The notes under the pieces were generated by a model. The model ran no database searches. It had not been told where the DNA came from and saw only the letters and a list, made by a program, of their open reading frames with translations. This document shows positions 1 through 58,874 of a stretch of 64,000 nt of DNA, one piece after another. Each line of letters opens with the position of its first letter. The first letter of the stretch is position 1. The translations under genes and the position numbers were made by a program. Source of the DNA: Eledone cirrhosa (Eukaryota); assembly GCA_964016885.1 (NCBI GenBank), contig CAXHJY010001327.1, positions 277,421-341,420 of the forward strand, read 5' to 3'.

Positions 1-3000
1 CCATGAATATAAAACTAGTAATGACTGTTACAATGAAATATAGTTCTAGTAATGACTGTTACAATGAAATATAGAACTGGTAATGACTGTTACAATGAAA
101 TATAAAACTAGTAATGACTGTTACAATGAAATATAAAACTAATAATGACTTATAATGAAATATAGAATTAGTAATGACAGTTACAATGAAATATAAAACT
201 AGTAATGACTGTTACAATGAAATATAAAACTAGTAATGACTGTTACAATGAACTATAAAACTAGTAATGACTGTTACAATGAACTATAAAACTAGTAATG
301 ACTGTTACAATGAAATATAGTACTAGAAATGACTGTTACAATGAATATAAAACTAGTAATGACTGTTACCATGAATATAAAACTAGTAATGACTTACCAT
401 GAATATAAAGCTAGTAATGACTGTTACAATGAAATATAGTTCTAGTAATGACTGTTACAATGAAATATAGTTCTAGTAATGACTGTTACAATGAAATATA
501 GTTCTAGTAATGACTGTTACAATGAAATATAGATCTACTAATGACTGTTACAATGAAATATAGAACTAGTATTGACTGCGACAATGAAATATAGAATTAG
601 TAATGACTGTCACAATGAAATATAGTTCTAGTAATGACTGTTCCAATGAAATATAGAACTAGTAATGACTGTTACAATGAAATATACAACTAGTAATGAC
701 TGTTACAATGAAATATAGAACAAGTAATGACTGTTACGATGAAATATAGAACTATTAATGACTGTTACAATGAAAAATAGAATTAGGAATGACTGTCACA
801 ATGAAATATAGAACTAGTAATGACTGTTACAATGAAATATAGAACTAGTAATGACTGTTACAATGAAATATAGAACTAGTAATGACTGTTACATTGAAAT
901 ATAAAACTAGTAATGGCTATTACAATGAAATATAGAACTAGTAATGGCTATTACAATGAAATATAGAACTAGTAATGACTGTTACATTGAAATATAAAAC
1001 TAGTAATGGCTTTTACAATGAAATATAGAACTAGTAATGACTTATAATGAAGTATAGAATTAGTAATGACTGTTACAATGAATATAAAACTAGTAATGAC
1101 TGTTACCATGAATATAAAACTAGTAATGACTGTTACAATGAATATAAAACTAGTAATGACTGTTACAATGAATATAAAACTAGTAATGACTGTTACAATG
1201 AATATAAAACTAGTAATGACTGTTATAATGAAACATAGAACTAGTAATGACTGTTATAATGAAATATAGAACTAGTAATGACTGTTACAATGAAATATAG
1301 AACTAGTAATGACTGTTACAATGAAATATAGAACTAGTAATGACTGTTACAATGAAATATAGAACTAGTAATGACTGTTACATTGAAATATAAAACTAGT
1401 AATGGCTATTACAATGAAATATAGAACTAGTAATGACTGTTACATTGAAATATAAAACTAGTAATGGCGTTTACAATGAAATATAGAACTAGTAATGACT
1501 GTTACAATGAAATATAAAACTAGTAATGACTTATAATGAAATATAGAATTAGTAATGACTGTTACAATGAAATATAAAACTAGTAATGACTGTTACAATG
1601 AAATATTGAACAAGTAATGACTGTTACAATGAAATATAAAACTAGTAATGACTGTTACAACGAACTATAAAACTAGTAATGACTGTTACAATGAAATATA
1701 GTACTAGAAATGACTGTTACAATGAATATAAAACTAGTAATGACTGTTACCATGAATATAAAACTAGTAATGACTTACCATGAATATAAAACTAGTAATG
1801 ACTGTTACAATGAAAAATAGTTCTAGTAATGACAGTTACAATGAAATATAGTTCTAGTAATGACTGTTATAATGAAATATAGAACTGGTAATGACTGTTA
1901 CAATGAAATATAGAACGAGTATTGACTGTGGCAATGAAATATAGAATTAGTAATGACTGTCACAATGAAATATAGTTCTAGTAATGACGGTTACAATGAA
2001 ATATAGAACTAGTAATGACTGTTACAATGAAATATAGAACTAGTAATGACTGTTACAATGAAATATAGAACTAGTAATGACTGTTACAATGAAATATACA
2101 ACTATTAATGACTGTTACAATGAAATAATGAACTAGTGATGACTGTTACAATGAAATAATGAACTAGTCATGACTGTTACAATGAAATATAAAACTAGTA
2201 ATGACTGTTACAATGAAATATAGTACTAGTAATGACTGTTACAATGAATATAAAACTAGTAATGACTGTTACCATGAATATAAAACTAGTAATGACTTAC
2301 CATGAATATAAAACTAGTAATGACTGTTACAATGAAATAATGAACTAGTAATGACTGTTACAATGAAATATAAAACTAGTAATGACTGTTAAAATGAAAT
2401 ATAGTACTAGTAATGACTGTTACAATGAATATAAAACTAGTAATGACTGTTACCATGAATATAAAACTAGTAATGACTGTTACCATGAATATAAAACTAG
2501 TAATGACTGTTACAATGAAATATAGTTCTAGTAATGACTGTTACAATGAAATATAGAACTGGTAATGACTGTTACAATGAAATATAAAACTAGTAATGAC
2601 TGTTACAATGAAATATAAAACTACTAATGACTTATAATGAAATATAGAATTAGTAATGACTGTTACAATGAAATATAAAACTAGTAATGACTGTTACAAT
2701 GAAATATTGAACTAGTAATGACTGTTACAATGAAATATAAAACAAGTAATGACTGTTACAATGAACTATAAAACTAGTAATGACTGTTACAATGAAATAT
2801 AGTACTAGTAATGACTGTTACAATGAATATAAAACTAGTAATGACTGTTACAATGAATATAAAACTAGTAATGACAGTTACAATGAATATAAAACTAGTA
2901 ATGACTGTTACAATGAAATATAGAACAAGTAATGACTGTTACAATGAAATATAGAACTAGTAATGACTGTTACATTGAAATATAAAACTAGTAATGGCTA

Positions 3001-6000
3001 TTACAATGAAATATAGAACTAGTAATGACTGTTACAATGAAATATAAAACTAGTAATGACTGTTACGATCAAATATAAAACTAGTAATGACTGTTACAAT
3101 CAAATATAAAACTAGTAATGACTTATTAGGAAATATAGAATTAGTAATGACTGTTACAATGAAATATAAAACTAGTAATGACTGTTACAATGAAATATAG
3201 TACTAGTAATGACTGTTACAATGAATATAAAACTAGTAATGACTGTTACCATGAATATAAAACTAGTAATGACTGTCACCATGAATATAAAACTAGTAAT
3301 GACTGTTACAATGAAAAATAGTTCTAGTAATGACAGTTACAATGAAATATAGTTCTAGTAATGACTGTTATAATGAAATATAGAACTGGTAATGACTGTT
3401 ACAATGAAATATAGAACGAGTATTGACTGTGGCAATGAAATATAGAATTAGTAATGACTGTCACAATGAAATATAGTTCTAGTAATGACGGTTACAATGA
3501 AATATAGAACTAGTAATGACTGTTACAATGAAATATAGAACTAGTAATGACTGTTACAATGAAATATAGAACTAGTAATGACTGTTACAATGAAATATAC
3601 AACTATTAATGACTGTTACAATGAAATAATGAACTAGTGATGACTGTTACAATGAAATAATGAACTAGTCATGACTGTTACAATGAAATATAAAACTAGT
3701 AATGACTGTTACAATGAAATATAGTACTAGTAATGACTGTTACAATGAATATAAAACTAGTAATGACTGTTACCATGAATATAAAACTAGTAATGACTTA
3801 CCATGAATATAAAACTAGTAATGACTGTTACAATGAAATAATGAACTAGTAATGACTGTTACAATGAAATATAAAACTAGTAATGACTGTTACAATGAAA
3901 TATAGTACTAGTAATGACTGTTACAATGAATATAAAACTAGTAATGACTGTTACCATGAATATAAAACTAGTAATGACTGTTACCATGAATATAAAACTA
4001 GTAATGACTGTTACAATGAAATATAGTTCTAGTAATGACTGTTACAATGAAATATAGAACTGGTAATGACTGTTACAATGAAATATAAAACTAGTAATGA
4101 CTGTTACAATGAAATATAAAACTACTAACGACTTATAATGAAATATAGAATTAGTAATGACTGTTACAATGAAATATAAAACTAGTAATGACTGTTACAA
4201 TGAAATATTGAACTAGTAATGACTGTTACAATGAAATATAAAACAAGTAATGACTGTTACAATGAACTATAAAACTAGTAATGACTGTTACAATGAAATA
4301 TAGTACTAGTAATGACTGTTACAATAAATATAAAACTAGTAAGGACTGTTACAATGAATATAAAACTAGTAATGACTGTTACAATGAATATAAAACTAGT
4401 AATGACTGTTACAATGAAATATAGAACAAGTAATGACTGTTACAATGAAATATAGAACTAGTAATGACTGTTACATTGAAATATAAAACTAGTAATGGCT
4501 ATTACAATGAAATATAGAACTAGTAATGACTGTTACAATGAAATATAAAACTAGTAATGACTGTTACGATCAAATATAAAACTAGTAATGACTGTTACAA
4601 TCAAATATAAAACTAGTAATGACTTATTAGGAAATATAGAATTAGTAATGACTGTTACAATGAAATATAAAACTAGTAATGACTGTTACAATGAAATAAT
4701 GAACTAGTAATGACTGTTACAATGAAATATAAAACTAGTAATGACTGTTACAATGAAATATAGTACTAGTAATGACTGTTACAATGAATATAAAACTAGT
4801 AATGACTGTTACCATGAATATAAAACTAGTAATGACTGTGACCATGAATATAAAACTAGTAATGACTGTTACAATGAAATAATGAACTAGTAATGACTGT
4901 TACAATGAAATATAAAACCAGTAATGACTGTTACCATGAATATAAAACTAGTAATGACTGTTACCATGAATATAAAACTAGTAATGACTGTTACAATGAA
5001 ATATAGTTCTAGTAATGACTGTTACAATGAAATATAGAACTGGCAATGACTGTTACAATGAAATATAAAACTAGTAATGACTGTTACAATGAAATATAAA
5101 ACTAGTAATGACTGTTACAATGAAATATAAAACTAATAATGACTTATAATGAAATATAGAATTAGTAATGACTGTTACAATGAAATATAAAACTAGTAAT
5201 GACTGTTACAATGAAATATAAAACTAGTAATAACTGTTACAATGAACTATAAAACTAGTAATGACCGTTACAATGAACTATAAAACTAGTAATGACTGTT
5301 ACAATGAAATATAGTACTAGAAATGACTGTTACAATGAATATAAAACTAGAAATGACTGTTACCATGAATATAAAACTAGTAATGACTTACCATGAATAT
5401 AAAACTAGTAATGACTGTTACAATGAAATATAGTTCTAGTAATGACTGTTACAATGAAATATAGTTCTAGTAATGACTGTTACAATGAAATATAGAACTG
5501 GTAATGACTGTTACCATGAATATGAAACTAGTAATGACTGTTACAATGAATATAAAACTAGTAATGACTGTTACAATGAATATAAAACTAGTAATGACTG
5601 TTATAATGAAATATAGAACTAGTAATGACTGTTACAATGAAATATAGAACTAGTAATGACTGTTACAATGAAATATAGAACTAGTAATGACTGTTACAAT
5701 GAAATATAGAACTAGTAATGACTGTTACATTGAAATATAAAACTAGTAATGGCTATTACAATGAAATATAGAACTAGTAATGACTGTTACATTGAAATAT
5801 AAAACTAGTAATGGCTTTTACAATGAAATATAGAACTTGTAATGACTGTTACAATGAAATATAGTACTAGAAATGACTGTTACAATGAATATAAAACTAG
5901 TAATGACTGTTACCATGAATATAAAACTAGTAATGACTGTTACCATGAATATAAAACTAGTAATGACTTATAATGAAATATAGAATTAGTAATGACTGTT

Positions 6001-26325: not shown

Positions 26326-29300
26326 CATCATCACCGTTTTAGGTCCGTTCTTCCACGCTAGCATGGGTTAGACGGGTTGTCCTGTTGTGGGCAGTGTCTG
26401 GTCGGCTGACCATGCCTTGCTCATACAGGAACTGATCTGGCTTGATTTCTACAGCTGGATGCCCTTCCTAACACCAACCTCATTTACAGTGAGTGCTGGG
26501 TGCTTTTTCGTGGCGCCTACACGTCCACTTTACAGTGTGGGCTGGGTGCTTTTTTGCCGTGGCACCTCCACGACCACCTTGCGGTGGGGGGGGGGGGCAT
26601 ATTGTTTATATGCTTCAGCATGTACCCATGGGAGGTCGGGTACCCTGTATTACTGCGTGACGCCAGAAGTCACGGTCGTGTGTCATTGACTTTGAGAGGT
26701 GTAGTTGGGTAAGGTCGGCTTTTATCACCTCATCCCAAGTCATCTTGGGTCTCCCCACTCCGCGGTTTCCATCAACTTCTAGTGCTCTGCACCTTTTTAT
26801 GCAGCTGTCATCCTTCATACGCATCACATGTCCATACCAGCGTAACCGCCTCTCCTGCACGCAGCATTTGATTCCTCTTATGCTCAGTCTCTCTCTCAAT
26901 TCATTTATGCTTTGTCGTTCACGTATATTACTGTTACACATCCATCGGAGCATGCAGGCTTCGTTTCTCTCTAATCTACGTAAGTCTTCCACCTTCAGCG
27001 CCCAGGTCTCACTACCATGCAACATCGCTGTTCGGATACACGCATCATACAGTCTGCCTTTCATTCTGAGGGAGAAGCCTTTTGCAGCTAGCAGTGGTAG
27101 TAGTTCCCTAAACTTCTTCCATCCCGTTCTTACCCTAGTTATTGTACTTTCTGAGCACCCACCTCCGTTGCTAATTCGGTCACCTAGGTAGCAGAAGCTG
27201 TCTACTGTTTCTACAGGGCCCTCCCAGAGATTGGTGGTACTTGTTTCCTGTGGCTGTTTGCTTGCTGTTTCAGCACAGCTGCTGCATGTGAATCCTACAT
27301 TCTTAATTAAGCTTCCTGAGATCCCGCTACATCTCTTGTGTACCCATTGTTTGCATTTGGGGCAAAGAATGGAGTTCCTACCTACACCTTTCCTACATAC
27401 TGAGCAAGGCCATTTCCCTGAGGGGATCTGGGTTCTGTTTTCTCGTCTACTTATAAGGACCTTAGTCTTTGTCATGTTGACTTTGAGGCCCTTTCTCTCT
27501 AGTCCCTGCTTCCAGGTTTGGAATTTATTCTCTAGTTCTACCATAGATTCAGCTATGAGTGCGAGGTCATCAGCATACAGGAGTTCCCATGGGCATCCGG
27601 TCTTAAACTCCTCCGTTATTGCCTGCAGGACTATGATGAACAGGAGAGGGCTAAGAACAGAGCCCTGGTGGACCCCAACCTGTACGCTAAATTCCTCGCT
27701 ATACTCATTGCCAATCCTAACTTTGCTGACTGCTCCCCTATACATGGCTTGTACCGCTTTCACAAGCCATTCATCTACTCCTAGTTTTCTAAGAGCCCAC
27801 CAGATTACTGCACGTGGAACTCTGTCAAAGGCTTTCTCAAGGTCGACAAATGCCAAGTAGAGTGGCTTACTTTTAGCTAGGTACTTTTCCTGTAATTGCC
27901 TCACAAGGAAGAGCGCATCAGTGGTGCCTTTCCCTGGAACAAACCCAAATTGCATCTCGTCTATATTCACCCGGTCCCTAATCAGCTGTGCTATAACTCT
28001 TTCTGTTACTTTCATGACCTGGTCCATCAACTTTATACCTCTATAGTTTCCTCTATCTAGTGCATCGCCTTTACCTTTGTAGCAGTTGACAATGATGCTA
28101 CTGCACCAATCTTTTGGTATGGCCCCCTCTAGTATTACCTGGTTAACGATACGTGTGGTTATAGTGTGACCTACAGACCCAGATGCCTTCAGCATCTCGG
28201 CAGCTATACCCGATGGACCGGTTGCCTTCCCTATCTTCATATCTCTGATTGCCTTACTTACTACGCTGCCGCTGACTTGTACTGCTGGTCCCTCTATAGG
28301 GTCTACGTGGGGTAGGGTCTCTTCTTCCCATGCATTCTCCTCATTTAGTAATCTATCATAATGACTCTTCCATGCATCTTTCTTCTCAGCACTTGTGAGG
28401 GCAAGCTCACCTTTATCATTCCGGATACACTTCTCTCCAATGACATCACAACTATCTCTGACACACTGCCTCGCAATCTTGAATACCTCCTGTTTCTGGT
28501 CCTCACGTTGTAAAACATGCTTGAATTTTCTATCCTCTGCTTCCCTCCTAGCTAAGTATACTTGTCGCCTAGCTTCCCTCTTGGTCTCTATGTAATGTAC
28601 CCTGCTCCCCCCGTTCTTCCATTCTTTCCATGCTTGTCTCTTGGCCTTGACTGCTTCATCTACCTTATTGTTCCACCACCAAGTCACTCTCCTCCTGCTT
28701 GAGGTCTTACTCCAGCCACAAACCTCATCCGTCGCCTCTAGTAAGTTATTTTTTAGGAACTCCCAGTTCTCTTCTACGTTAAATGTCTCTATCTGTTCTT
28801 CTTTACTGTCGTAGGCGTTGAGTAAAATATCTTTAAATCTGTTACTGGTTGAGGGGACTTTCAGCTTCCAGATCTTTCTTCTCCAGGTTGGCCTCTGTTT
28901 CAGGGCTCGTCTAGTTCTGACCGTGAGGTCGCTGACAACTAAGCTATGTTGGGATGTACATTCCTCACTAGGGAAGGCTTTTGTGTTTACGACCGTCCAT
29001 CTGTCACGTCCTCTGATGAGGATAAAATCTAACTGACTAGAGTGCTCCCCTGATCTATAGGTGATCAGGTGGTTGTCGGGTTTTTTAAAGTTTGTGTTAC
29101 ATATCGACATGTCATTGGCGTCGCAGAATTCTAGAAGTCTGAATCCTTCCTCATTCCTTGTGCCAACTCCATGGCCTCCATGTACTCTATTGAAGCCGTC
29201 GCAGTGTTTACCTACGTGTCCGTTAAAATCTCCTGCAATGATTAGGAAGTCCTTGTCGTCTGTTAGAGCAGTAGTGTGTATTAGGGACTCGTAAAACCTA

Positions 29301-29404
29301 TCCTTAAGTTCGTCTGGCAGCCCCGATTGGGGTGCGTAAGCTGATATTATTGTGGTAATTGTCTTATTCAGGACTAGTCTGAGTTTAATGATTCTTGCAT
29401 TAAA
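26326..29404 (-). mobile_element. 5'-truncated young RTE-clade non-LTR retrotransposon inserted in the satellite
   Basis: APE endonuclease motifs (SAYAP, GDFNGHVG, SQLDFIL, SQH), RT motifs (QFGF, AFVDLEKAFD, QGSVLSP, YADD) and the RTE-type C-terminus RLRWYGHV...GRPKMTW. ~290-bp 3'UTR ending in (GAT)n. Flanked by GAATAT at 26320-26325 and 29405-29410. Confidence 0.97.
26615..29404 (-). CDS. RTE ORF (partial APE endonuclease, reverse transcriptase, PHD-type zinc finger), 5'-truncated but uninterrupted
   Basis: The ORF track gives 831 aa from Met 29110. The same frame stays open 98 more codons to the junction (FNARIIKLRLVLNKTITTIISAYAPQSG...GDFNGHVG...RLLEFCDANDM). The N-terminal endonuclease part and native start are missing. 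Confidence 0.93.
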   Translation of the reverse strand, partial: FNARIIKLRLVLNKTITTIISAYAPQSGLPDELKDRFYESLIHTTALTDDKDFLIIAGDFNGHVGKHCDGFNRVHGGHGVGTRNEEGFRLLEFCDANDMSICNTNFKKPDNHLITYRSGEHSSQLDFILIRGRDRWTVVNTKAFPSEECTSQHSLVVSDLTVRTRRALKQRPTWRRKIWKLKVPSTSNRFKDILLNAYDSKEEQIETFNVEENWEFLKNNLLEATDEVCGWSKTSSRRRVTWWWNNKVDEAVKAKRQAWKEWKNGGSRVHYIETKREARRQVYLARREAEDRKFKHVLQREDQKQEVFKIARQCVRDSCDVIGEKCIRNDKGELALTSAEKKDAWKSHYDRLLNEENAWEEETLPHVDPIEGPAVQVSGSVVSKAIRDMKIGKATGPSGIAAEMLKASGSVGHTITTRIVNQVILEGAIPKDWCSSIIVNCYKGKGDALDRGNYRGIKLMDQVMKVTERVIAQLIRDRVNIDEMQFGFVPGKGTTDALFLVRQLQEKYLAKSKPLYLAFVDLEKAFDRVPRAVIWWALRKLGVDEWLVKAVQAMYRGAVSKVRIGNEYSEEFSVQVGVHQGSVLSPLLFIIVLQAITEEFKTGCPWELLYADDLALIAESMVELENKFQTWKQGLERKGLKVNMTKTKVLISRRENRTQIPSGKWPCSVCRKGVGRNSILCPKCKQWVHKRCSGISGSLIKNVGFTCSSCAETASKQPQETSTTNLWEGPVETVDSFCYLGDRISNGGGCSESTITRVRTGWKKFRELLPLLAAKGFSLRMKGRLYDACIRTAMLHGSETWALKVEDLRRLERNEACMLRWMCNSNIRERQSINELRERLSIRGIKCCVQERRLRWYGHVMRMKDDSCIKRCRALEVDGNRGVGRPKMTWDEVIKADLTQLHLSKSMTHDRDFWRHAVIQGTRPPMGTC

Positions 29405-32400
29405 GAATATAAAACTAGTAATGACTTACCATGACTATAAAACTAGTAATGACTGTTACCATGAATATAAAACTGGTAATGACTGTTACAATGAAATATA
29501 GTTCTAGTAATGACTGTTACAATGAAATATAGAACTGGTAATGACTGTTACAATGAAATATAAAACTAGTAATGACTGTTACAATGAAACAATGAACTAG
29601 TAATGACTGTTACAATGAAATATAAAACTAGTAATGACTGTTACAATGAAATATAGAACTAGTAATGACTGTTACATTGAAATATAAAACTAGTAATGGC
29701 TGTTACAATGAAATATAGAACTAGTAATGACTGTTACAATGAACTATAAAACTAGTAATGACTTACGATGAAATATAGTACTAGAAATGACTGTTACAAT
29801 GAATATAAAACTAGTAATGACTGTTACCATGAATATAAAACTAGTAATGACTTACCATGAATATAAAACTAGTAATGACGGTTACAATGAAATATAGTTC
29901 TAGTAATGACTGTTACAATGAAATATAGTTCTAGTAATGACTGTTACAATGAAATATAGAACTGGTAATGACTGTTACAATGAAATATAGAACTAGTAAT
30001 GACTGTTACAATGAAATATAGAATTAGTATTGACTGTGACAATGAAATATAGAATTAGTAATGACTGTCACAATGAAATATAGTTCTAGTAATGACTGTT
30101 ACAATGAAACATAGAACTAGTAATGACTGTTACAATGAAATATAGAACTAGTAATGACTGTTACAATGAAATATAGAACTAGTAATGACTGTTACAATGA
30201 AATATAGAATTAGTAATGACTGTCACAATGAAATATAAAACTAGTAATGACTGTTACAATGAAATATAGAAAAAATAATGACTGTTACATGGAAATATAA
30301 AACTAGTAATGACTGTTATAATAAAATACAGTACTAGTAAAGACTGTTACAATGAATATAAAACTAGTAATGACTGTTACAACGAATATAAAACTAGTAA
30401 TGACTGTTACAATGAAATATAAAACAATCAATGACTGTTTCAATGAAAAATAGAACTAGTAATGACTGTTACAATGAAATATAGAACTAGTAATGACTGT
30501 TACAATGAAATATACACCTAGTAATAACTGTTACAATGAAATATAAAACTAGTAATGACTGTTTCAATGAAATATGGTACTAGTAATAACTGTTATAATG
30601 AAATATAAAACTAGTAATGACTGTTACAATGAAATATAAAACTAGTAATGACTGTTACAATGAAATATAAAACTAATTATGACTGTTACAATGAAATATA
30701 AAACTAGTAATGACTGTTACACTGAAATATAAAACTAGTAATGACTGTTACAATGAAATATAAAACTAGTAATGACTGTTACAATGAAATATAGAACTAG
30801 TAATGACTGTTACAATGAATATAAAACTAGTAATGACTGTTAAAAGGAATATAAAACTAGTAATGACTTATAATGAAATATAGAACTAGTAATGACTGTT
30901 ACAATGAATATAAAACTAGTAATGACTGTTACAATGAATATAAAACTAGTAATGACTGTTCCAATGAATATAAAACTAGTAATCACTGTTACAATGAATA
31001 TAAAACTAGTAATGACTGTTACAATGAATATAAAACTAGTAATGACTGTTACAATGAATATAAAACTAGTAATGACCGTTATAATGAAATATAGAACTAG
31101 TAATGACTGTTACAATGAAATATAGAACTAGTAATGACTGTTACATTGAAATATAAAACTAGTAATGGCTATTACAATGAATATAAAACTAGTAATGACT
31201 GTTACAATGAATATAAAACTAGTAATGACTATTACAATGAATATAAAACTAGTAATGACTGTTATAATGAAATATAGAACTAGTAATGACTGTTTCAATG
31301 AAATATAGAACTAGTAATGACTGTTACAATGAAATATAGAATTAGTAATGACTGTCACAATGAAATATAGTTCTAGTAATGACTGTTACAATGAAACATA
31401 GAACTAGTAATGACTGTTACAATGAAATATAGAACTAGTAATGACTGTTACAATGAAATATAGAACTAGTAATGACTGTTACAATGAAATATAGAATTAG
31501 TAATGACTGTCACAATGAAATATAAAACTAGTAATGACTGTTACAATGAAATATAGAAAAAATAATGACTGTTACATGGAAATATAAAACTAGTAATGAC
31601 TGTTATAATAAAATATAGTACTAGTAAAGACTGTTACAATGAATATAAAACTAGTAATGACTGTTACAACGAATATAAAACTAGTAATGACTGTTACAAT
31701 GAAATATAAAACAATCAATGACTGTTTCAATGAAAAATAGAACTAGTAATGACTGTTACAATGAAATACAGAACTAGTAATGACTGTTACAATGAAATAT
31801 ACAACTAGTAATAACTGTTACAATGAAATATAAAACTAGTAATGACTGTTTCAATGAAATATGGTACTAGTAATAACTGTTATAATGAAATATAAAACTA
31901 GTAATGACTGTTACAATGAAATATAAAACTAGTAATGACTGTTACAATGAAATATAAAACTAGTAATGACTGTTACAATGAAATATAAAACTAGTAATGA
32001 CTGTTACAATGAAATATAAAACTAGTAATGACTGTTACAATGAAATATAAAACTAGTAATGACTGTTACAATGAAATATAGAACTAGTAATGACTGTTAA
32101 AAGGAATATAAAACTAGTAATGACTGTTAAAAGGAATATAAAACTAGTAATGACTTATAATGAAATATAGAACTAGTAATGACTGTTACAATGAATATAA
32201 AACTAGTAATGACTGTTACAATGAATATAAAACTAGTAATGACTGTTCCAATGAATATAAAACTAGTAATGACTGTTACAATGAATATAAAACTAGTAAT
32301 GACTGTTACAATGAATATAAAACTAGTAATGACCGTTATAATGAAATATAGAACTAGTAATGACTGTTACAATGAAATATAGAACTAGTAACGACCGTTA

Positions 32401-35400: not shown

Positions 35401-38400
35401 AATATAAAACTAGTAATGACTGTTACAATGAATATAAAACTAGTAATGACCGTTATAATGAAATATAGAACTAGTAATGACTGTTACAATGAAATATAGA
35501 ACTAGTAACGACCGTTACATTGAAATATAAAACTAGTAATGGCTATTACAATGAAATATAGAACTAGTAATGACTGTTACAATGAAATATAAAACTAGTA
35601 ATGACGTATAATGAAATATAGAATTAGTAATGACTGTTACGATGAAATATAAAACTAGTAATGACAGTTACAATGAAATAATGAACTAGTAATGACTGTT
35701 ACAATGAAATATAAAACTAGTAATGACTGCTACAATGAAATATAAAACTAGTAATGACTGTTACAATGAAATATAGTACTAGTAATGACTGTTACAATGA
35801 ATATAAAACTAGTAATGACTTACCATGAATATAAAACTAGTAATGACTATTACCATGAATATAAAACTGGTAATGACTGTTACAATGAAATATAGTTCTA
35901 GTAATGACTGTTACAATGAAATATAGAACTGGTAATGACTGTTACAATGAAATATAGAACTGGTAATGACTGTTACAATGAAATATAAAACTAGTAATGA
36001 CTGTTACAATGAAATATAAAACTAGTAATGACTGTTACAATGAATATAAAACTAGTAATTACTGTTACAATGAAATATAGAACTAGTGATGACTGTTACA
36101 ATGAATATAAAATTAGTAATGACTGTTACATTGAAATATAAAACTAGTAATGACTGTTACAATGAAATATAAAACTAGTAATGACTGTTACAATGAAATA
36201 TAGAACTAGTAATGACTGTTTCAATGAAATATAGAACTAGTAATGACTGTTACAATGAAATATAGAACTAGTAATGACTGTTACATTGAAATATAAAACT
36301 AGTAATGGCCGTTACAATGAAATATAGAACTAGTAATGACTGTTACAATGAAATATAAAACTAGTAATGACTGTTACAATGAAATATAGAACTAGTAATG
36401 ACTGTTACAATGAAATATAGAACTAGTAATGACTGTTACAATGAAATATAGAACTAGTAATGACTGTTACAATTAAATATAGAACTAGTAATGACTGTTA
36501 CAATGAAATATAGAACTAGTAATGACTGTTGCAATGAAATATAGTTCTAGTAATGACTGTCACAATGAAATATAGTACTGAAAATGACTGTTACAATGAA
36601 TATAAAACTAGTAATGACTGTTACCATGAATATAAAACTAGTAATGACTTACCATGAACAAAACTAGTAATGACTGTTACAATGAAATATAGTACTAGAA
36701 ATGACTGTTACAAGGAATATAAAACTAGTAATGACTGTTACAATGAAATATAAAACTAGTAATGACTGTTACAATGAAATATAGAACTAGTAATGACTGT
36801 TACAATGAATATAAAACTAGTCATGACTGTTACAAGGAATATAAAACTAGTAATGACTGTTATAATGAAATATAGAACTATTAATGACTGTTACAATGAA
36901 ATATAGAACTAGTAATGACTGTTACAATGAATATAAAACTAGTAATGACTGTTACAATGAATATAAAACTAGTAATGACTGTTACAATGAAATTTAGAAC
37001 TAGTAATGACTGTTACAATGAAATTTAGAACTAGTAATGACTGTTACAATGAAATATAGAACTAGTAATGACTGTTACAATGAAATATAGTACTAGTAAT
37101 GACTGTTACAATGAACATAAAACTAGTAATGACTGTTACAATGAAATATAGAACTAGCAGTGAGTGTGACAATGAAATATAGAACGAGAAATGACTGTTA
37201 CAATGAAATATAGAACTAGTAATGACTGTTACAATGAAATGTAGAACTAGTAATGACTGTTACAATGAAATAATGACTGTTACAATGAAATATAGAACTA
37301 GTAATGACTGTTACAATGAAATATAGAACTTGTAATGACTGTTACAATGAAATATAGAACTCGTAATGACTGTTACCATGAATATAAAACTAGTAATGAC
37401 TGTTACGATGAAGTATAAAACTAGTAATGTCTGTTACAATGAAATAAAGAACTAGTAATGACTGTTACAATGAAATATAGAACTAGTAATGACTGTTACA
37501 ATGAAATATAGAACTAGTAATGACTGAAATATAGAACTAGTAATGACTGTTATAATGAAATATAAAACTAGTAAAGACTTGAAATGAAATATAAAACTAG
37601 TAATGACTGTTAAAAAGAAATATAAAACTAGTAATGACTTATAATGAAATATAAAACTAGTAATGACTGTTACAATGAAATATAGAACTAGTAATGACTG
37701 TTACAATGAAATATAGAACTAGTAATGACTGTTACAATGAAATATAGAACTAGTAATGACTGTTACCATGAATATAAAACTAGTAATGACTTACCGTAAA
37801 TATAAAACTAGTAATGACTGTTACAATGAAATATAGTTCTAGTAATGACTGTTACAATGAAATATAGAACTGCTAATGACTGTTACAATGAAATATAAAA
37901 CTAGTAATGACTGTTACAATGAAATATAAAACTAGTAATAACTGTTACAATGAAATATAAAACTAGTAATAACTGTTACAATGAAATATACAACTAGTAA
38001 TGACTGTTTCAATGAAATATGGTACTAGTAATAACTGTTATAATGAAATATAAAACTAGTAATGACTGTTACAATGAAATATAAAACTAGTAATGACTGT
38101 TACAATGAAATATAAAACTAGTAATGACTGTTACAATGAAATATAAAACTAGTAATGACTGTTACAATGAAATATAAAACTAGTAATGACTGTTACAATG
38201 AAATATAAAACTAGTAATGACTTACAATGAAATATAGAACTAGTAATGACTGTTACAATGAATATAAAACTAGTAATGACTGTTAAAAGGAATATAAAAC
38301 TAGTAATGACTTATAATTGTTTCTACTTTAGGCACAAGGACAGCAATTACCCAGTGCATTACTGGTACTTTATTTTATCGACCCCGTAAGGATGAAAGGC

Positions 38401-41400
38401 AAAGTCAACCTCGGCGGGATTTGAACTCAAATCGTAAAGGGACGTAACTATGCTGGAAAGCATGGCGTCCGACCCTCTACCGATACTGCCAATCCACCGC
38501 CATTTAATGACTTATAATGAAATATAGAACTAGTAATGACTGTTACAATGAAATATAGAACTAGTAATGACTGTTACAATGAATATAAAACTAGTAATGA
38601 CTGTTAAAAGGAATATGAAACTAGTAATGACTGTTAAAAGGAATATAAAACTAGTAATGACTTATAATGAAATATAGAACTAGTAATGACTGTTACAATG
38701 AAATAATGAACTAGGAATGACTGTTACAATGAAATATAAAACTAGTAATGACTGTTACAATGAAATATAGTACTAGTAATGACTGTTACAATGAATATAA
38801 AACTAGTAATGACTTACCATGAATATAAAACTAGTAATGACTGTTACCATGAATATAAAACTGGTAATGACTGTTACAATGAAATATAGTTCTAGTAATG
38901 ACTGTTACAATGAAATATAGTTCTCGTAATGACTGTTACAATGAAATATAGAACTGGTAATGACTGTTACAATGAAATATAAAACTAGTAATGACTTACA
39001 ATGAAATATAAAACTAGTAATGACTGTTACAATGAAATATAAAACTAGTAATGACTGTTACAATGAATATAAAACTAGTAATGACTGTTACAATGAAATA
39101 TAGAACTAGTAATGACTGTTACAATGAATATAAAACTAGTAATGACTGTTACATTGAAATATAAAACTAGTAATGACTGTTACAATGAAATATAAAACTA
39201 GTAATGACTGTTACAATGAAATATAGAACTAGTAATGACTGTTTCAATGAAATATAGAACTAGTAATGACTGTTACAATGAAATATAGAACTATTAATGA
39301 CTGTTACATTGAAATATAAAACTAGTAATGGCTGTTACAATGAAATATAAAACTAGTAATGACTGTTACAATGAAATATAGTACTAGAAATGACTGTTAC
39401 AAGGAATATAAAACTAGTAATGACTGTTACAATGAAATATAAAACATGCAATGACTGTTTCAATGAAAAATAGAACTAGTAATGACTGTTACAATGAAAT
39501 ATAGAACTGGTAATGACTGTTACAATGAAATATACAACTAGTAATGACTGGTTCAACGAAATATGGTACTAGTAATAACTGTTATAATGAAATATAAAAC
39601 TAGTAATGACTGTTACAATGAATATAAAACTAGTAATGACTGTTACAATGAAATATAAAAATTGTAATGACTGTTACAATGAAATATAGAACTAGTAATG
39701 ACTGTTACAAGGAATATAAAACTAGTAATGACTGTTACAAGGAATATAAAACTAGTAATGACTGTTATAATGAAATATAGAACTATTAATGACTGTTACA
39801 ATGAAATATAGAACTAGTAATGACTGTTACAATGAATATAAAACTAGTAATGACTGTTACAATGAATATAAAACTAGTAATGACTGTTACAATGAAATAT
39901 AGAACTAGTAATGACTGTTACAATGAAATATAGAACTAGTAATGACTGTTACATTGAAATATAAAACTAGTAATGGCTATTACAATGAAATATAGAACTA
40001 GTAATGACTGTTACAATGAAATATAAAACTAGTAATGACTGTTACAATGAATATAAAACTAGTAATGACTGTTACAATGAAATATAGAATTAGTAATGAC
40101 TGTTACAATTAAATAAAGAACTAGTAATGACTGTTACAATGAAATATAGAACTAGTAATGACTGTTACAATGAAATATAGAACTAGTAATGACTGTTACA
40201 ATGAAATATAGAACTAGTAATGACTGTTACAATGAAATATAAAACTAGTAATGACTGTTACAATGAAATATAGAACTCGTAATGACTGTTACAATGAATA
40301 TAAAACTAGTAATGACTGTTACAATGAATATAAAACTAGTAATGACTGTTACAATGAATATAAAACTAGTAATGACTGTTACAATGAATATAAAACTACT
40401 AATGTCTGTTACAATGAAATAAAGAACTAGTAATGACTGTTACAATGAAATATAGAACTAGTAATGACTGTTACAATGAAATATAGAACTAGTAATGACT
40501 GAAATATAGAACTAGTGATGACTGTTATAATGAAATATAAAACTAGTAATGACTTGAAATGAAATATAAAACTAGTAATGACTGTTAAAAAGAAATATAA
40601 ATCTAGTAATGACTTATAATGAAATATAAAACTAGTAATGACTGTTACAATGAAATATAGAACTAGTAATGACTGTTACAATGAAATATAGAACTAGTAA
40701 TGACTGTTACCATGAATATAAAACTAGTAATGACTTACCATGAATATAAAACTAGTAATGACTGTTACAATGAAATATAGTTCTAGTAATGACTGTTACA
40801 ATGAAATATAGTTCTAGTCATGACTGTTACAGTGAAATATAGAACTGGTAATGACTGTTACAATGAAATATAGAACTAGTATTGACTGTGACAATGAAAT
40901 ATAGAATTAGTAATGACTGTCACAATGAAATATAGTTCTAGTAATGACTGTTACAATGAAATATAGAACTAGTAATGACTGTAACAATGAAATATAGAAC
41001 TAGTAATGACTGTTACAATGAAATATAAAACTAGTAATGACTGTTACGATGAAATAATGAACTAGTAATGACTGTTACAATGAAATATAAAACTAGTAAT
41101 GACTGTTACAATGAAATATAGTACTAGTAATGACTGTTACAATGAATATAAAACTAGTAATGACTGTTACCATGAATATAAAACTAGTAATGACTGTTAC
41201 CATGAATATAAAACTGGTAATGACTGTTACAATGAAATATAGTTCTAGTAATGACTGTTACAATGAAATATAGTTCTCGTAATGACTGTTACAATGAAAT
41301 ATAGTTCTAGTAATGACTGTTACAATGAAATATAGAACTGGTAATGACTGTTACAATGAAATATAAAACTAGTAATGACTGTTACAATGAATTATAAAAC

Positions 41401-47400: not shown

Positions 47401-48422
47401 TACAATGAAATATAGAACTAGTAATGACTGTTACAATGAAATATAGAACTAGTAATGACTGTTACAATGAAATATAGAACTAGTAATGACTGTTACAATG
47501 AATATAAAACTAGTAATGACCGTTACCATGAATATAAAACTAGTAATGACTTACCATGAATATAAAACTAGTAATGACTGTTACAATGAAATATAGTTCT
47601 AGTAATGACTGTTACAATGAAATATAGTTCTAGTAATGACTGTTACAATGAAATATAGAACTGGTAATGACTGTTACAATGAAATATAGAACTAGTAATG
47701 ACTGTTACGATGAAATATAGAATTAGTATTGACCGTGACAATGAAACATAGAATTAGTAATGACTGTCACAATGAAATATAGTTCTAGTAATGACTGTTA
47801 CAATGAAACAGAACTAGTAATGACTGTTACAATGAAATATAGAACTAGTAATGACTTACCATGAATATAAAACTAGTAATGACTGTTACAATGAAATATA
47901 GAACTAGTATTGACTGTGACAATGAAATATAGTATTAGTAATGACTGTCACAATGAAATATAGTTCTAGTAATGACTGTTACAATGAAATATAGAACTAG
48001 TAATGACTGTAACAATGAAATATAGAACTAGTAATGATTGTTACAATGAAATATAAAACTAGTAATGACTGTTACAATGAAATATAGAACTAGTAATGAC
48101 TGTTACAATGAAATATATAACTAGTAATGACTGTTACAAAGAAATATAGAATTAGTAATGACTGTCACAATGAAATATAAAACTAGTAATGACTTACAAT
48201 GAAATATAGAACTAGTAATGACTGTTACAATGAAATATAGAACTAGTAATGACCGTTACAATGAAATATAGAACTAGTAATGACTGTTTCAATGAAATAT
48301 AGAACTAGTAATGACTGTTTCAATGAAATATAGAACTAGTAATGACTGTTACAATGAACATAAAACTAGTAATGACTGTTACAATGAAATATAGAACTAG
48401 TAATGACTGTTACAATGAAATA
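29405..48422. repeat. 30/31-bp satellite, right block (more diverged, local duplications)
   Basis: Same monomer. Marker runs repeat at 3117 bp (30873/33990, 32160/35277), 1287 bp (30873/32160) and ~582 bp (45681/46263). Interrupted by a SINE at 38318. Confidence 0.99.
38318..38504 (-). mobile_element. tRNA-derived SINE with Nin/Deu-like central domain, inserted in the satellite
   Basis: Minus strand shows an A box (TGGCAGTATCGG), a B box (GAGTTCAAATCC) and the body GACTTTGCCTTTCATCCTTACGGGGTCGATAAAATAAAGTACCAG. 14-bp TSD TAATGACTTATAAT at 38304-38317 and 38505-38518. Confidence 0.92.
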
Positions 48423-48733
48423 TAGAACTAGTAATGACTATATCTTATGTTAGTATCATATAGAACTAGTAATGACTATATCTTATGTTAGTCAGTATCA
48501 TATAGAACTAGTAATGACTATATCTTATGTTAGTATCATATAGAACTAGTAATGACTATATCTTATGTTAGTATCATATAAAACTAGTAATGACTATATC
48601 TTATGTTAGTATCATATAGAACTAGTAATGACTATATCTTATGTTAGTCAGTATTATATAGAACTAGTAATGACTATCTTATGTTAGTATCATATAGAAC
48701 TAGTAATGACTGTATCTTGTTAGTCAGCATCAA
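48423..48733. repeat. Transitional 36-42-bp tandem array, 8 units
   Basis: Unit TAGAACTAGTAATGACTATATCTTATGTTAGT(CAGT)ATCATA starting at 48423, 48461, 48503, 48541, 48579, 48617, 48659 and 48695. Its first 17 nt are identical to part of the 31-mer. Confidence 0.95.
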
Positions 48734-48756
48734 CAACAAAAGTATAAATGGGTTGA

Positions 48757-51454
48757 TAGAACACCTGGGTACAAGAGGAGTGTGGTAGAACACCTGGGTA
48801 AAAGAGGGGTGTGGTAGAACACCTGGGTACAAGAGGAGTGTGGTAGAACAGCTGGGTACAAGAGGGGTGTGGTAGAACAGCTGGGTACAAGAGGGGTGTG
48901 GTAGAACAGCTGGGTACAAGAGGAGTGTGGTAGAACACCTGGGTACAAGAGGGGTATGGTAGAACACCTGGGTACAAGAGGAGTGTGGTAGAACACCTGG
49001 GTACAAGAGGGGTGTGGTAGAACACCTGGGTACAAGAGGAGTATGGTAGAACAGCTGGGTACAAGACGGGTGTGGTAGAACACCTGGGTACAAGAGGAGT
49101 ATGGTAGAACAGCTGGGTACAAGAGGGGTATGGTAGAACACCTGGGTACAAGAGGGGTGTGGTAGAACAGCTGGGTACAAGAGGGGTGTGGTAGAACAGT
49201 TGGGTACAAGAGGGGTATGATAGAACACCTGGGTACAAGAGGGGTATGATAGAACACCTGGGTACAAGAAGGGTGTGGTAGAACACCTGGGTACAAGAGG
49301 GGTGTGGTAGAACAGCTGGGTACAAGAGGGGTGTGGTAGAACAGCTGGGTACAAGAGGGGTGTGGTAGAACAGCTGGGTACAAGAGGGGTGTGGTAGAAC
49401 AGCTGGGTACAAGAGGAGTGTGGTAGAACACCTGGGTACAAGAGGGGTGTGGTAGAACAGCTGGGTACAAGAGGGGTGTGGTAGAACACCTGGGTACAAG
49501 AGGGGTGTGGTAGAACAGCTGGGTACAAGAGGGGTGTGGTAGAACACCTGGGTACAAGAGGGGTATGGTAGAACAGCTGGGTACAAGAGGGGTGTGGTAG
49601 AACACCTGACAACAAGAGGGGTGTGGTAGAACACCTGACAACAAGAGGGGTGTGGTAGAACACCTGGGTACAAGAGGGGTGTGGTAGAACAGCTGGGTAC
49701 AAGAGGGGTGTGGTAGAACAGCTGGGTACAAGAGGAGTGTGGTAGAACACCTGAGTACAAGAGGGGTGTGGTAGAACAGCTGGGTACAAGAGGAGTGTGG
49801 TAGAACACCTGGGTACAAGAGGGGTGTGGTAGAGAGCTGGGTACAAGAGGGGTATGGTAGAGAGCTGGGTACAAGAGGGGTATGGTAGAACAGTTGGGTA
49901 CAAGAGGGGTATGATAGAACACCTGGGTACAAGAGGGGTGTGGTAGAACACCTGGGTACAAGAGGGGTGTGGTAGAACACCTGGGTACAAGAGGGGTGTG
50001 GTAGAACAGCTGGGTACAAGAGGGGTATGGTAGAACAGCTGGGTACAAGAGGAGTATGGTAGAACACCTGGGTACAAGAGGGGTGTGGTAGAACACCTGG
50101 GTACAAGAGGGGTGTGGTAGAACAGCTGGGTACAAGAGGGGTGTGGTAGAACACCTGGGTACAAGAGGGGTGTGGTAGAACAGCTGGGTACAAGAGGGGT
50201 GTGGTAGAACACCTGGGTACAAGAGGGGTGTGGTAGAACACCTGGGTACAAGAGGGGTGTGGTAGAACAGCTGGGTACAAGAGGGGTGTGGTAGAACAGC
50301 TGGGTACAAGAGGGGTGTGGTAGAACAGCTGGGTACAAGAGGGGTGTGGTAGAACAGCTGGGTACAAGAGGGGTATGGTAGAACAGCTGGGTACAAGAGG
50401 GGTATGGTAGAACACCTGGGTACAAGAGGGGTGTGGTAGAACAGCTGGGTACAAGAGGGGTGTGGTAGAACAGCTGGGTACAAGAGGGGTGTGGTAGAAC
50501 AGCTGGGTACAAGAGGGGTGTGGTAGAACACCTGGGTACAAGAGGGGTGTGGTAGAACACCTGGGTACAAGAGGGGTGTGGTTGAACAGCTGGGTACAAG
50601 AGGGGTGTGGTAGAACACCTGGGTACAAGAGGGGTGTGGTAGAACAGCTGGGTACAAGAGGGTGTGGTAGAACAGCTGGGTACAAGAGGGGTGTGGTAGA
50701 ACAGCTGGGTACAAGAGGGGTGTGGTAGAACACCTGGGTACAAGAGGGGTGTGGTAGAACACCTGACAACAAGAGGGGTGTGGTAGAACACCTGGGTACA
50801 AGAGGGGTGTGGTAGAACAGCTGGGTACAAGAGGGGTGTAGTAGAACACCTGGGTACAAGAGGGTGTGGTAGAACACCTGGGTACAAGAGGGGTGTGGTA
50901 GAACAGCTGGGGACAAGAGGGGTGTGGTAGAACAGCTGGGGACAAGAGGGGTGTGGTAGAACACCTGGGGACAAGAGGGGTGTGGTAGAACAGCTGGGGA
51001 CAAGAGGGGTGTGGTAGAACACCTGGGGACAAGGTGTGTGGTAGAACACCTGGGGACAAGAGGGGTGTGGTAGAACACCTGGGGACAAGAGGGGTGTGGT
51101 AGAACACCTGGGGACAAGAGGGGTGTGGTAGAACACCTGGGGACAAGAGGGGTGTGGTAGAACAGCTGGGTACAAGAGGGGTGTGGTAGAACACCTGGGT
51201 ACAAGAGGGGTGTCGTAGAACACCTGGGGACAAGAGGGGTGTGGTAGAACACCTGGGGACAAGAGGGGTGTGGTAGAACACCTGGGGACAAGAGGGGTGT
51301 GGTAGAACAGCTGGGTACAAGAGGGGTGTGGTAGAACAGCTGGGGACAAGAGGGGTGTGGTAGAACACCTGGGGACAAGAGGGGTGTGGTAGAACAGCTG
51401 GAGACAAGAGGGGTGTGGTAGAACAGCTGGGGACAAGAGGGGTGTGGTAGAACA
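48757..51454. repeat. G-rich 29-bp minisatellite, ~93 copies
   Basis: Unit TAGAACA(C/G)CTGGG(T/G)ACAAGAGGGGTGTGG. It explains the three ~900-aa minus-strand ORFs. Confidence 0.98.
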
Positions 51455-51510
51455 AGAAAGACTTATCAGTCAGTTTATATTTACTATATATATGTGACTC
51501 CCTACTCTCT

Positions 51511-51594
51511 CAGTTCAAATCCTATCACAGTCAACTTTGCCTTTCATCCTTTCGAGGTCAATAAAAAAAGTACCAGTCATGTACTGGGGTTGAT
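51511..51594 (+). mobile_element. Older fragment of the same SINE superfamily (B box plus central domain)
   Basis: CAGTTCAAATCC...GTCAACTTTGCCTTTCATCCTTTCGAGGTCAATAAAAAAAGTACCAG...CTGGGG matches the body of the SINEs at 38318 and 52957. Confidence 0.75.
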
Positions 51595-51974
51595 TCTTCC
51601 TCTATATCTCTTTCTCATTTCCTCTCTCTCACTTTCTATCTTTCTCTGGAAGAAATCTGTTGTATTCAGACCTGGAGAGGGATGGGCTCCACCATACTTA
51701 AAATACTCGAGAAGCACTGTATATCAATACAGCGCCCCTACCACTATCAGGAGTTACAGGACCACACATATGTGTGGTAAATAAATATACATTAGGTACA
51801 CAATGGAACCAAATTACCAATGTCACTGCCTCCGTCTCTCCCCATCTCATCCCCATCTCACACTATTATAAGAAATGGGAGCCCATGTGCTGGCTGGCCC
51901 TGGCAGACAGAATAGAGAAGGCGTTTCCCCAGAGGATGGTAAGGGAGATGGGTTGGAAGAGTCAACATTGTTAC

Positions 51975-52144
51975 TAAAGAATGCAACAAGGTTTCGTTTG
52001 TTGAGGTCAGTTTCTACCACTTTTTTTCATGTCTTCTTTGGTCTCCTTCTTCCGTAGGTTTTAGCCACTTCTTTATACACATCCATTCTACCACACTCTT
52101 CCTCATCATTTTACACCTGCTTTATCATGCTTGCATGGGTTCGA
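51975..52144 (-). mobile_element. Decayed RTE fragments (ORF C-terminus and 3' tail)
   Basis: Minus strand reads GRRRPKKT*KKVVETDLNKRNL (compare GRPKMTWDEVIKADL). 52103-52144 resembles the RTE terminus (tcatcatttt...catgcttgcatgggtt). Confidence 0.5.
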
Positions 52145-52317
52145 CACACACACACATATTCAGTACTCTCTTCTGCTAACTATTATTCTCGCTTTCTGTA
52201 CACACTGAAACTCTTAGCTGTCACCAGCACCACTGCCTTACAGCAGTCCCCACCACCTCTACCACATTCACACCATCAACAAAATGTCTAACTTCAACAA
52301 ATTTTTTAAAAATCACT

Positions 52318-52367
52318 TCACCTTGAAATCCTTCCTGCACCAAGCTTGAAAAATTTCTGTTCAGAAT
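52318..52367 (-). CDS. GTSF1: GTSF1-like gene, probable coding exon 4 (DSEQKFFKLGAGRISR then TGA, or spliced at AG|GTGAAG)
   Basis: Strong acceptor AATTTTATTTCAG, phase-1 compatible with exon 3. The frame is open to TGA at 52318-52320, which overlaps a possible donor. Confidence 0.6.
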
Positions 52368-52956
52368 CTGAAATAAAATTATTTAAATATAGATATAGAC
52401 GTTAAATGATGATGATGATGTGTTATGCATTTTCTTTGCTGCATTTTAATAAATGCACAGCCAAAGAACACAGCTCACAAAAACAAGATGGTATAAATTA
52501 GAACAAAAAGAGAAAGTAACAGCAAGTAGTCACTGAGGAGGCCACAGAATGTGTGATAAAAGACCTTTGATGACAATCAACAACTAAACAACCATCCAGT
52601 TATTAAACAAACCAACTGGGAAATTATAATAATAAATTGAAGTAAAACCCAACAGGTGTGTGTGTGTGCGTATGTTTTTATTGGCAGTATGACCTACCAT
52701 TTCCATACTAGCAATGGTTGGACATGTCATCACAGAGTAGTTAGTACTCAAGCAGAGCTTTTAACCTCAAGGAGTCTGGGAGGGCCTGACATGATTCCTT
52801 GCATTTTATTGTGGTACCAGCACTCAGGAAGTTGTTATGTCTCTGACATAGCAGAAGAGTTTTGCCAACACTTTGTTTTCTATGGCTGGATACCTTTCCT
52901 ACCACCATCCATTTTACAGAGTATACTGTGTGTATGTGCACATATATATATATAAT

Positions 52957-53139
52957 TGTTTCTACTTTAGGCACAAGGCCAGCAATTACCCAGTGCATTA
53001 CTGGTACTTTATTTTATCGACCCCGTAAGGATGAAAGGCAAAGTCAACCTCGGCGGGATTTGAACTCAGATCGTTAAGGGACGTAACTATGCTGGAAAGC
53101 ATGGCGTCCGACCCTCTACCGATACTGCCAATCCACCGC
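52957..53139 (-). mobile_element. tRNA-derived SINE, near-identical to the copy at 38318
   Basis: About 3 substitutions relative to the satellite copy by eye. Probable TSD ATATATAAT at 52948-52956 and 53140-53148. Lies in a GTSF1 intron. Confidence 0.92.
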
Positions 53140-53303: not shown

Positions 53304-53405
53304 CAGCTTCCCAATCTTCCTCCCTGTTTAACTCAAAGCTTGCATCAGGTACATCAAGATTGCCTGAAGGGAGATCATCAGTGTCTTTATTTTGTTGAAG
53401 GCAGG
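53304..53405 (-). CDS. GTSF1: GTSF1-like gene, coding exon 3 (ACLQQNKDTDDLPSGNLDVPDASFELNREEDWEA)
   Basis: Acceptor CTTTCAG, donor G|GTAAGT, 102 nt phase 1 to phase 1, no stops. The acidic EEDW motif resembles the Trp-containing PIWI-binding central region of GTSF1. Confidence 0.85.
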
Positions 53406-54855: not shown

Positions 54856-54963
<108 letters not shown>

Positions 54964-55031
54964 ATATGTGTGTGCACATATTTGTAATGGAATGGTAAAA
55001 CTTGAAAAAAGTGAAACATTCATTTCAAAGA

Positions 55032-58827: not shown

Positions 58828-58874
58828 CATATATATATATAATATGTCTATATATATATATATAATATGTCTAT

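Follow-up and report, generated by a model that had tools for sequence, protein, structure and literature searches.

A probable satellite-filled intron of at least 52 kb in the GTSF1 gene of the octopod Eledone cirrhosa

In the 64,000-nucleotide stretch of Eledone cirrhosa DNA analysed here (the window), a gene of GTSF1, a family active in transposon defence, is read leftward from the minus strand and meets a stop codon just before a block of tandem repeats that runs off the left end. This arrangement raises the question of whether the gene ends at that stop or whether the block is one of its introns. An earlier note on this DNA had suggested that the block may be a giant intron or a read-through region of the gene, possibly supplying RNA to the piRNA pathway. 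As set out below, the long-intron part of this idea gained support from orthologue tails that are absent from the window, whereas the read-through and piRNA part found no support.

The minus strand of the window encodes exons 1–4 of an octopod GTSF1, with two CHHC fingers. Coding exon 1 (56709–56822, ATG at 56822) carries finger 1 (Pfam zf-U11-48K, E = 3.9e-10) and is followed by a GTAAGT donor; 37 of its 38 residues equal those of the Octopus orthologues. Finger 2 (zf-U11-48K, E = 4.2e-8) lies in exon 2 (54501–54627), which has canonical AG/GTAAGT splice sites. Exon 3 (53304–53405; tblastn E = 9e-11) contains an acidic EEDW motif, and exon 4 (52322–52367), preceded by a TTTCAG acceptor, extends 46 nt to a predicted donor and is identical to O. 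bimaculoides at 14 of 15 residues. Introns 1–3 measure 2081, 1095 and 936 nt. Over exons 1–4, 114 of 129 residues are identical to O. bimaculoides, and 112 of 129 are identical between O. bimaculoides and Argonauta over the matching stretch, which points to coding exons without decay. The best PDB matches of the profile were GTSF1 chains (mouse GTSF1, 6x46; GTSF1, 9nhb); two CHHC fingers in tandem at the N-terminus and a central acidic/aromatic motif, both found in those proteins, argue for membership of the GTSF1/Asterix family. In PMC13650160, central aromatic residues of such proteins are described as binding PIWI, and W112 of the EEDW motif, invariant across a 10-sequence alignment, is a candidate for this role. 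Across the whole 64 kb no Rfam family matched at the gathering threshold, and a metagenome scan with the protein query gave 140 pattern matches, none confirmed.

At the end of exon 4, the sequence AAG/GTGAAG (52316–52324, minus strand; GT at 52321–52320) overlaps the read-through TGA (52320–52318), just as the earlier note had pointed out. With five of nine consensus matches, against seven or eight of nine for introns 1–3, this predicted 5' splice site of intron 4 is the weakest of the four. The coding length summed through exon 4 is 389 nt, so the intron would be in phase 2, and splicing at this site would preserve the frame of the orthologues. The split codon AG+N is Ser in both octopod orthologues, fitting AG+T/C. 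These two orthologues differ by a one-residue indel at the predicted joint, a frequent kind of difference at exon joints. If the donor is read through, the frame has 130 codons and closes with GRISR-stop. Any phase-2 donor of the form GTRA necessarily brings an in-frame TRA; the TGA is therefore a by-product of the GTRA consensus and was rejected as a mark of the true gene end.

The 130-residue product had been called short for its family, and comparison with the cephalopod orthologues (O. bimaculoides, Argonauta and cuttlefish), all 321–329 aa, agreed. The full-length set includes proteins from 1.3–1.5-kb Logan contigs, and XP_014787926 and GAB1597928 are among the orthologue accessions. Far from stopping at GRISR, an ending that the earlier note had said would count against an intron, these proteins run on for 195–200 residues beyond the phase-2 donor position, so that about 60% of the protein is missing from the window. 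The C-terminal parts of the orthologues matched none of 3376 six-frame pieces of the window (hmmsearch --max, E<=10), and tblastn at E<=1 did not find them either; for comparison of sensitivity, the 16-aa exon 4 was detected at E = 6e-4. The missing tail holds a C-terminal hairpin resembling the C-terminus of eIF2A/PYM (8dys_A, E = 2.4e-5). As this hairpin was found in 48 of 147 further matches, including brachiopod, limpet, oyster and tunicate proteins, the tail is judged from sequence comparison to be ancient. Cephalopod and many other invertebrate forms, at about 320–500 aa with this hairpin, differ from the GTSF1 of 6x46 and 9nhb. Since the last ~195 orthologue residues are absent from the window, exon 4 probably ends at the donor at 52321, and everything to its left down to position 1 probably belongs to a single intron, at least 52 kb long and 92% tandem; the remaining exons would then lie further left, outside the window. 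We hold this reading with reasonable confidence.

The inferred intron 4 (1–52321, minus strand, open leftward) spans at least 52,321 nt, of which 48,113 nt are tandem repeat. It would begin with a non-tandem segment (51455–52321) with transposable-element (TE) remnants, among them an antisense SINE fragment at 51512–51588. Such remnants had been placed ~170 bp downstream of exon 4, in keeping with the repeat-derived sequence that raised contig depth (bin 52096–52211) indicates from ~110–220 nt downstream. Next comes a GC-rich 29-bp array of ~93 copies (48750–51454), then a 38-bp array (48420–48718) whose core recurs in the 31-bp unit, and then an AT-rich 31-bp satellite (6–48439, the part up to the 38-bp array being 6–48419). 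The satellite contains near-identical multi-kb blocks (for example 99.6% identity at offset 3117 and 99.4% at offset 7684). Two young insertions interrupt it, both on the minus strand. One is a 5'-truncated LINE (26326–29404) with a TGA-repeat tail and a 6-bp flanking duplication, whose motifs suggest that it may belong to the RTE clade; its 936-codon open frame (26615–29425) encodes an endonuclease remnant (Exo_endo_phos_2), a reverse transcriptase (RVT_1, E = 7.5e-32) and a PHD finger. The other, a SINE (38318–38504), is flanked by a 14-bp duplication and shares 98.4% identity with the SINE of intron 3 (52951–53139).

Continuity of the assembly was assessed with short-read contigs from three runs of one study and one sample; the run search that listed these named no RNA dataset. 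Intronic words are present, so the runs behave as genomic DNA; they may come from the window's own individual and hence are not independent support. Exon 2 lies inside an unbranched 945-nt contig, and exon 4 inside a 631–634-nt contig with no differences in all three runs. As exons 2, 3 and 4 each fall in one unbranched single-copy contig at depth ~5–8, no diverged second copy was seen, and a spare 5' fragment seems unlikely. The contigs break at SINEs, and none bridges 51455–51923 (SINE at 51512–51700) into the 29-bp array, whose unit is multi-copy (depth 524–706 vs ~8). This leaves some room for a misjoin or rearrangement, whereby a full-length gene with a shorter true intron was joined to the satellite via a repeat, or its 3' exons really moved. 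Annotations of O. vulgaris and O. sinensis also give GTSF1 as two separate models, although these splits fall between exon 2 and residue ~168–181 and so are not specific to intron 4. Spacerless near-perfect palindromes occur at 61097–61491 and near 61655–61970, showing that odd structures are found in this contig. Against a misjoin, the window has no N, and the 38-bp array looks like an edge derivative of the 31-bp unit. Identity between satellite blocks stays at 98–99.6%, short of 100%, and the flanking duplications of the TE insertions are intact, both as in a resolved array. We consider a misjoin or rearrangement unlikely.

It is less probable still that the donor is unused, such that a truncated 130-aa GTSF1 is made via the TGA and the satellite lies outside the gene, with polyadenylation at a TATAAA variant (52077 or 51479, minus strand) or inside the SINE or LINE, where sense-strand AATAAA occurs at 38374 and 27529, respectively. 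The weak donor would suit such a gene, as would a product that retains both fingers and the aromatic residue of the EEDW motif; short, apparently complete natural GTSF1 proteins are reported in nematodes, for example 95 aa in Trichinella (PMC13650160). The ancient tail is present in all full-length cephalopod orthologues found, however, and none of them ends at exon 4. A search for forms below 178 aa yielded five candidates, one of which qualified, a model of 101 aa that runs on into intron 2; none ended at exon 4. The lack of AATAAA and ATTAAA between exon 4 and the arrays (51455–52320, minus strand), as reported in the earlier note, is correct but at chance level: when the 864-nt flank was shuffled 2000 times with its dinucleotides preserved, 42% of the shuffles lacked both as well, and this absence was rejected as evidence for an intron (P(0) = 0.42). 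A minor isoform made by intronic polyadenylation could exist alongside the long intron.

Under the favored long-intron reading, transcription by Pol II would run across the arrays, and the spliceosome would connect exon 4 with an exon 5 far to the left, which would complete the Ser codon. The arrays probably expanded within an ordinary intron, and may have been tolerated because their sense strand lacks a canonical poly(A) hexamer. On the gene-sense strand of the 31-bp satellite there are no AATAAA/ATTAAA and 44 GTAAGT, vs 32 and none, respectively, on the antisense strand. The missing hexamers were discarded as evidence, since 95% of shuffled monomers also lack them. Of 45 GTAAGT sites in the satellite, 37 share one context, so these sites derive mostly from one deletion variant and represent about one event, not 44. 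More speculatively, the 44 sites may recruit U1, allowing telescripting or stepwise splicing.

That a transcript crossing the arrays supplies satellite and LINE RNA to the piRNA pathway, as feedback from the locus of one of its cofactors, is highly improbable. The gene does belong to a family of piRNA-pathway cofactors, the block does hold a young LINE and SINE, and Pol II would, as in flamenco-type uni-strand clusters, make a long transcript across repeats. In those clusters TE copies lie antisense to transcription. Here, TEs make up only ~3.3 kb of the 52 kb and, instead of dense antisense fragments, one LINE and one SINE lie within 48 kb of satellite, both sense, an orientation expected to give sense piRNAs. 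Their co-orientation with the gene was correctly noted earlier, but two of two is at chance level (P = 0.25) and was set aside as evidence, with close copies nearby in both orientations: a 99.1% identical LINE copy upstream of the gene (58872–59530) is antisense, as is the SINE fragment flanking exon 4.

Least credible of all is that exon 4 is spliced to an acceptor-like site ~0.9 kb downstream, so that the 29-bp array is exonized and its repeats encode a tail of as many as ~900 codons: its gene-sense strand offers 87 acceptor-like sites (at least 10 of 12 pyrimidines before YAG) and three open frames of 910–931 codons, but its tracts are C-rich, that strand has no CTRAY branch motif, the orthologue tails are unrelated to the repeat, and the frames stay open because the 29-nt unit contains no stop; they were also rejected as genes.

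Ordinary octopus introns, expanded by repeats, have a median length of 2,467 bp in O. vulgaris (PMC10700109) and a mean of 5.4 kb in O. minor (PMC6279123). The proposed intron would likewise be enlarged by repeats, but at ~20 times that median length and by tandem satellite instead of dispersed TEs. Another likeness is to kl-3 and kl-5, Drosophila Y-linked fertility genes with gigantic satellite-filled introns (PMC6508621): a germline-associated gene family, and an intron that would be almost wholly tandem and in need of transcription. If the intron is real, it would thus be satellite-dominated in the manner of Y-loop genes. The comparison with Drosophila Y-linked genes made in the earlier note overstated the size, which is megabases in the fly and here no less than 52 kb (a lower bound, as the array runs off the window); the units are complex (29–38 bp) rather than simple, and the organism is a mollusc. 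The Drosophila genes are further marked by Y-linkage, lampbrush-like loops and dedicated RNA-binding proteins. It is a long shot that the octopod intron is far longer than 52 kb and common to O. vulgaris and O. sinensis, with a poly(A)-signal-free strand bearing U1 sites; expression of a PIWI activator would then depend on transcribing and stepwise splicing satellite, a mollusc counterpart of Y-loop genes coupling satellite chromatin state to piRNA-pathway strength.

No published report of the locus was found in the largely open-access literature searched on GTSF1 in octopus, octopus satellites and introns, and GTSF1/eIF2A/PYM. The locus is a probable new mollusc instance of a known phenomenon, and a satellite-filled GTSF1 intron, taken alone, would point to no new mechanism. 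If the reading is right, it would account for the two octopus annotations in which GTSF1 is split or misnamed 'eIF2A' or 'Partner of Y14 and mago'. It would also extend satellite-filled long introns to a mollusc, in a germline gene that is probably essential. Outside Drosophila, the locus would offer a place to study the passage of Pol II and the spliceosome through tens of kb of tandem repeats, here with 87 acceptor-like decoys as well as 44 donor-like sites along the way.

The gene lies on the minus strand, with coding exons at 56822-56709, 54627-54501, 53405-53304 and from 52367 on, separated by introns of 2081, 1095 and 936 nt. The first three exons carry GTAAGT donors, and exons 2 to 4 follow AG acceptors. 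Exons 1 and 2 each match Pfam zf-U11-48K, and the EEDW motif persists in exon 3, its Trp invariant in alignment; the family is defined by CHHC fingers in tandem plus central aromatic residues (PMC13650160, excerpt). With exon 2 as query among longer proteins, all three candidates matched (O. sinensis, 101 aa; O. bimaculoides, 321 aa; Argonauta hians, 329 aa), and the 324-aa O. bimaculoides isoform matched 4 of 1120 candidates, adding a cuttlefish (324 aa) and a bryozoan (297 aa) protein. A profile from four orthologues had solved GTSF1 chains (6x46, 9nhb) as its best matches. The first 129 residues are identical to O. bimaculoides at 114 positions and to Argonauta at 111, the two relatives agreeing at 112 of 129; the source is thus an octopod, and its GTSF1 copy is free of accelerated decay. 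A few nucleotides upstream of the ATG an AG follows a (TA/CA) tract (56823-56850); a non-coding first exon may therefore exist beyond that point. Intron 1 holds 19 copies of a 68-bp minisatellite (55031-56336) and (GT)58 (54858-54974).

Read straight on, exon 4 gives GRISR-stop after 130 codons, the stop overlapping AAG|GTGAAG at 52321. Orthologues ending at GRISR would have refuted the earlier note's proposal, but they run on for 195-200 residues. Up to the donor there are 389 coding nt (phase 2), so that the split codon is AG plus one base; AG+T/C encodes Ser, which both O. bimaculoides and Argonauta have there, with a one-residue indel between them at this position, as would fit an exon joint. 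The missing C-terminal part had no match among 3376 six-frame window pieces at E≤10, nor by tblastn in the window at E≤1; the window search detected the 16-residue exon 4 at E=6e-4. Most likely, exon 4 is spliced from 52321 to an exon beyond the window's left edge; intron 4 would then measure 52,321 nt or more, 92% of it tandem. Judged on sequence, the satellite block is probably such a long intron with further exons to the left, so this half of the earlier proposal stands as probable.

A misjoin in the assembly, or a rearrangement, that brought gene and satellite together is unlikely. Three short-read runs of one sample, possibly the window's own individual, cover the region; none is recorded as RNA, and they contain intronic words. 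A contig of 631-634 nt (from 51923) contains exon 4 and shows 0 differences in any of the three runs; exon 3 lies within a single listed contig in all three and exon 2 in two, at depths of ~5-8. No short-read contig crosses the SINE at ~51512-51700 to reach the arrays, and the link between gene and satellite comes from the assembly. The window contains no N. Blocks of satellite 0.7-3.2 kb long recur at 98-99.6% identity, and the LINE and SINE insertions keep flanking duplications of 6 and 14 bp, as expected of a resolved array. Run X2 has a contig linking 53935 to 53553, whereas the window form has support from X1; the sample is likely heterozygous for a ~380-bp indel in intron 2 (53554-53934), where a ~135-bp segment is duplicated around a repeat. 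Near-spacerless palindromes at 61097-61491 and ~61655-61970, between (TA)n tracts and one with perfect 197-nt arms, could be either real or library/assembly fold-backs.

That the gene is truncated at 130 aa is more doubtful still. The TGA does not speak for a genuine gene end, because any GTRA donor in phase 2 brings an in-frame TRA right after it. A search for forms below 178 aa matched one of five candidates, an O. sinensis model reading into intron 2. The flank does lack AATAAA and ATTAAA, as had been noted, but so do 42% of 2000 shuffles of it, which puts the absence at chance level. A spare 5' fragment is unlikely because the exon contigs should branch if a diverged second copy existed; an identical large duplication is still compatible with them.

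The exon 4 end, flank, arrays, LINE and SINE had been described accurately. Left of the donor, 867 nt of non-tandem DNA (51455-52321) precede arrays with units of 29 bp (48750-51454) and 38 bp (48420-48718), after which a 31-bp satellite extends to position 6, at the window's edge. Two minus-strand insertions, a 5'-truncated LINE and a SINE, break up this satellite. On its sense strand the 31-bp satellite has no AATAAA/ATTAAA, against 32 on the other, and 44 GTAAGT against 0; such a strand would be permissive for elongation, and the GTAAGT sites could recruit U1. These counts need not reflect selection, since 95% of shuffled monomers are hexamer-free and most GTAAGT sites have one variant context in common. 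The LINE and SINE contribute sense poly(A) hexamers at 27529, 29389, 38374 and 38508; the same SINE, with its AATAAA, also sits in intron 3, so such hexamers are tolerated.

The earlier note's other suggestion, a piRNA source, is unsupported and very improbable. Antisense orientation of transposable elements is a feature of flamenco-type clusters, and the LINE and SINE in the satellite are sense. Their co-orientation with the gene is real, but two of two has P=0.25, and antisense copies occur nearby: a SINE fragment within the flank, and a LINE copy upstream of the gene. Four fragments of this LINE family, in both orientations, lie at 58453-60741, upstream of the ATG; one is 99.1% identical to the satellite copy, which points to recent activity. 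Its motifs suggest that the LINE belongs to the RTE clade. Active RTE-clade LINEs have been reported in octopus (PMC9115989, excerpt).

Exonisation of the 29-bp array is the least credible reading: its 87 acceptor-like sites on the sense strand are without a branch motif, and under the long-intron reading all would have to be skipped. All three minus-strand frames are open over 48674-51509 (910-931 codons), 0.9 kb downstream of the donor.

For scale, excerpts give a median intron of 2,467 bp in O. vulgaris (PMC10700109), a mean intron of 5.4 kb in O. minor (PMC6279123), and a gene length above 30 kb for the top ~14% of O. bimaculoides genes (PMC7222433, PMC9068888). GTSF1 models are whole in O. 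bimaculoides and Argonauta. O. vulgaris has two, CAI9721041 (94 aa, N-half) and CAI9721034 (158 aa, C-half), on contigs of equal size (176.7 Mb); O. sinensis has its N-half on a 23.9-kb contig and its C-half, labelled 'eIF2A', on a 164.8-Mb contig. The splits suggest hard-to-assemble long introns, their breaks spanning exon 2 to residue ~168-181 without singling out intron 4. If intron 4 is as proposed, it would resemble the satellite-bearing Drosophila kl-3/kl-5 introns in having tandem DNA transcribed inside a gene (PMC6508621, excerpt). Y-loop genes are also megabases in size, sex-linked and loop-forming, with a dedicated programme; the present locus is known from sequence, and we do not class it among them. 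A literature search of incomplete coverage found no report of the locus.

The tail missing from the window is conserved. In orthologues it ends in a ~50-aa helical hairpin matching the eIF2A C-terminus (8dys_A, E=2.4e-5), a region similar to PYM (PMC12221301, excerpt). Of the 147 new proteins that a profile search listed, 48 have the hairpin, a count biased upward by its presence in the search profile, and 11 are ≤140 aa; carriers include proteins of Lingula, Patella, Saccostrea and Clavelina. Transcript-sized Logan contigs of 1.3-1.5 kb also yield cephalopod-type forms of 321-325 aa. In the split O. sinensis and O. vulgaris models (P0005, P0006, P0008, P0002) the C-halves bear the wrong names, 'eIF2A' and 'Partner of Y14 and mago'. 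GRG-rich stretches precede the hairpin in many invertebrate GTSF1 proteins (orthologues P0007, P0004, P0009-P0157). The same incomplete literature search found no report of a GTSF1 hairpin. Speculatively, it may connect a PIWI activator with the 40S ribosome.
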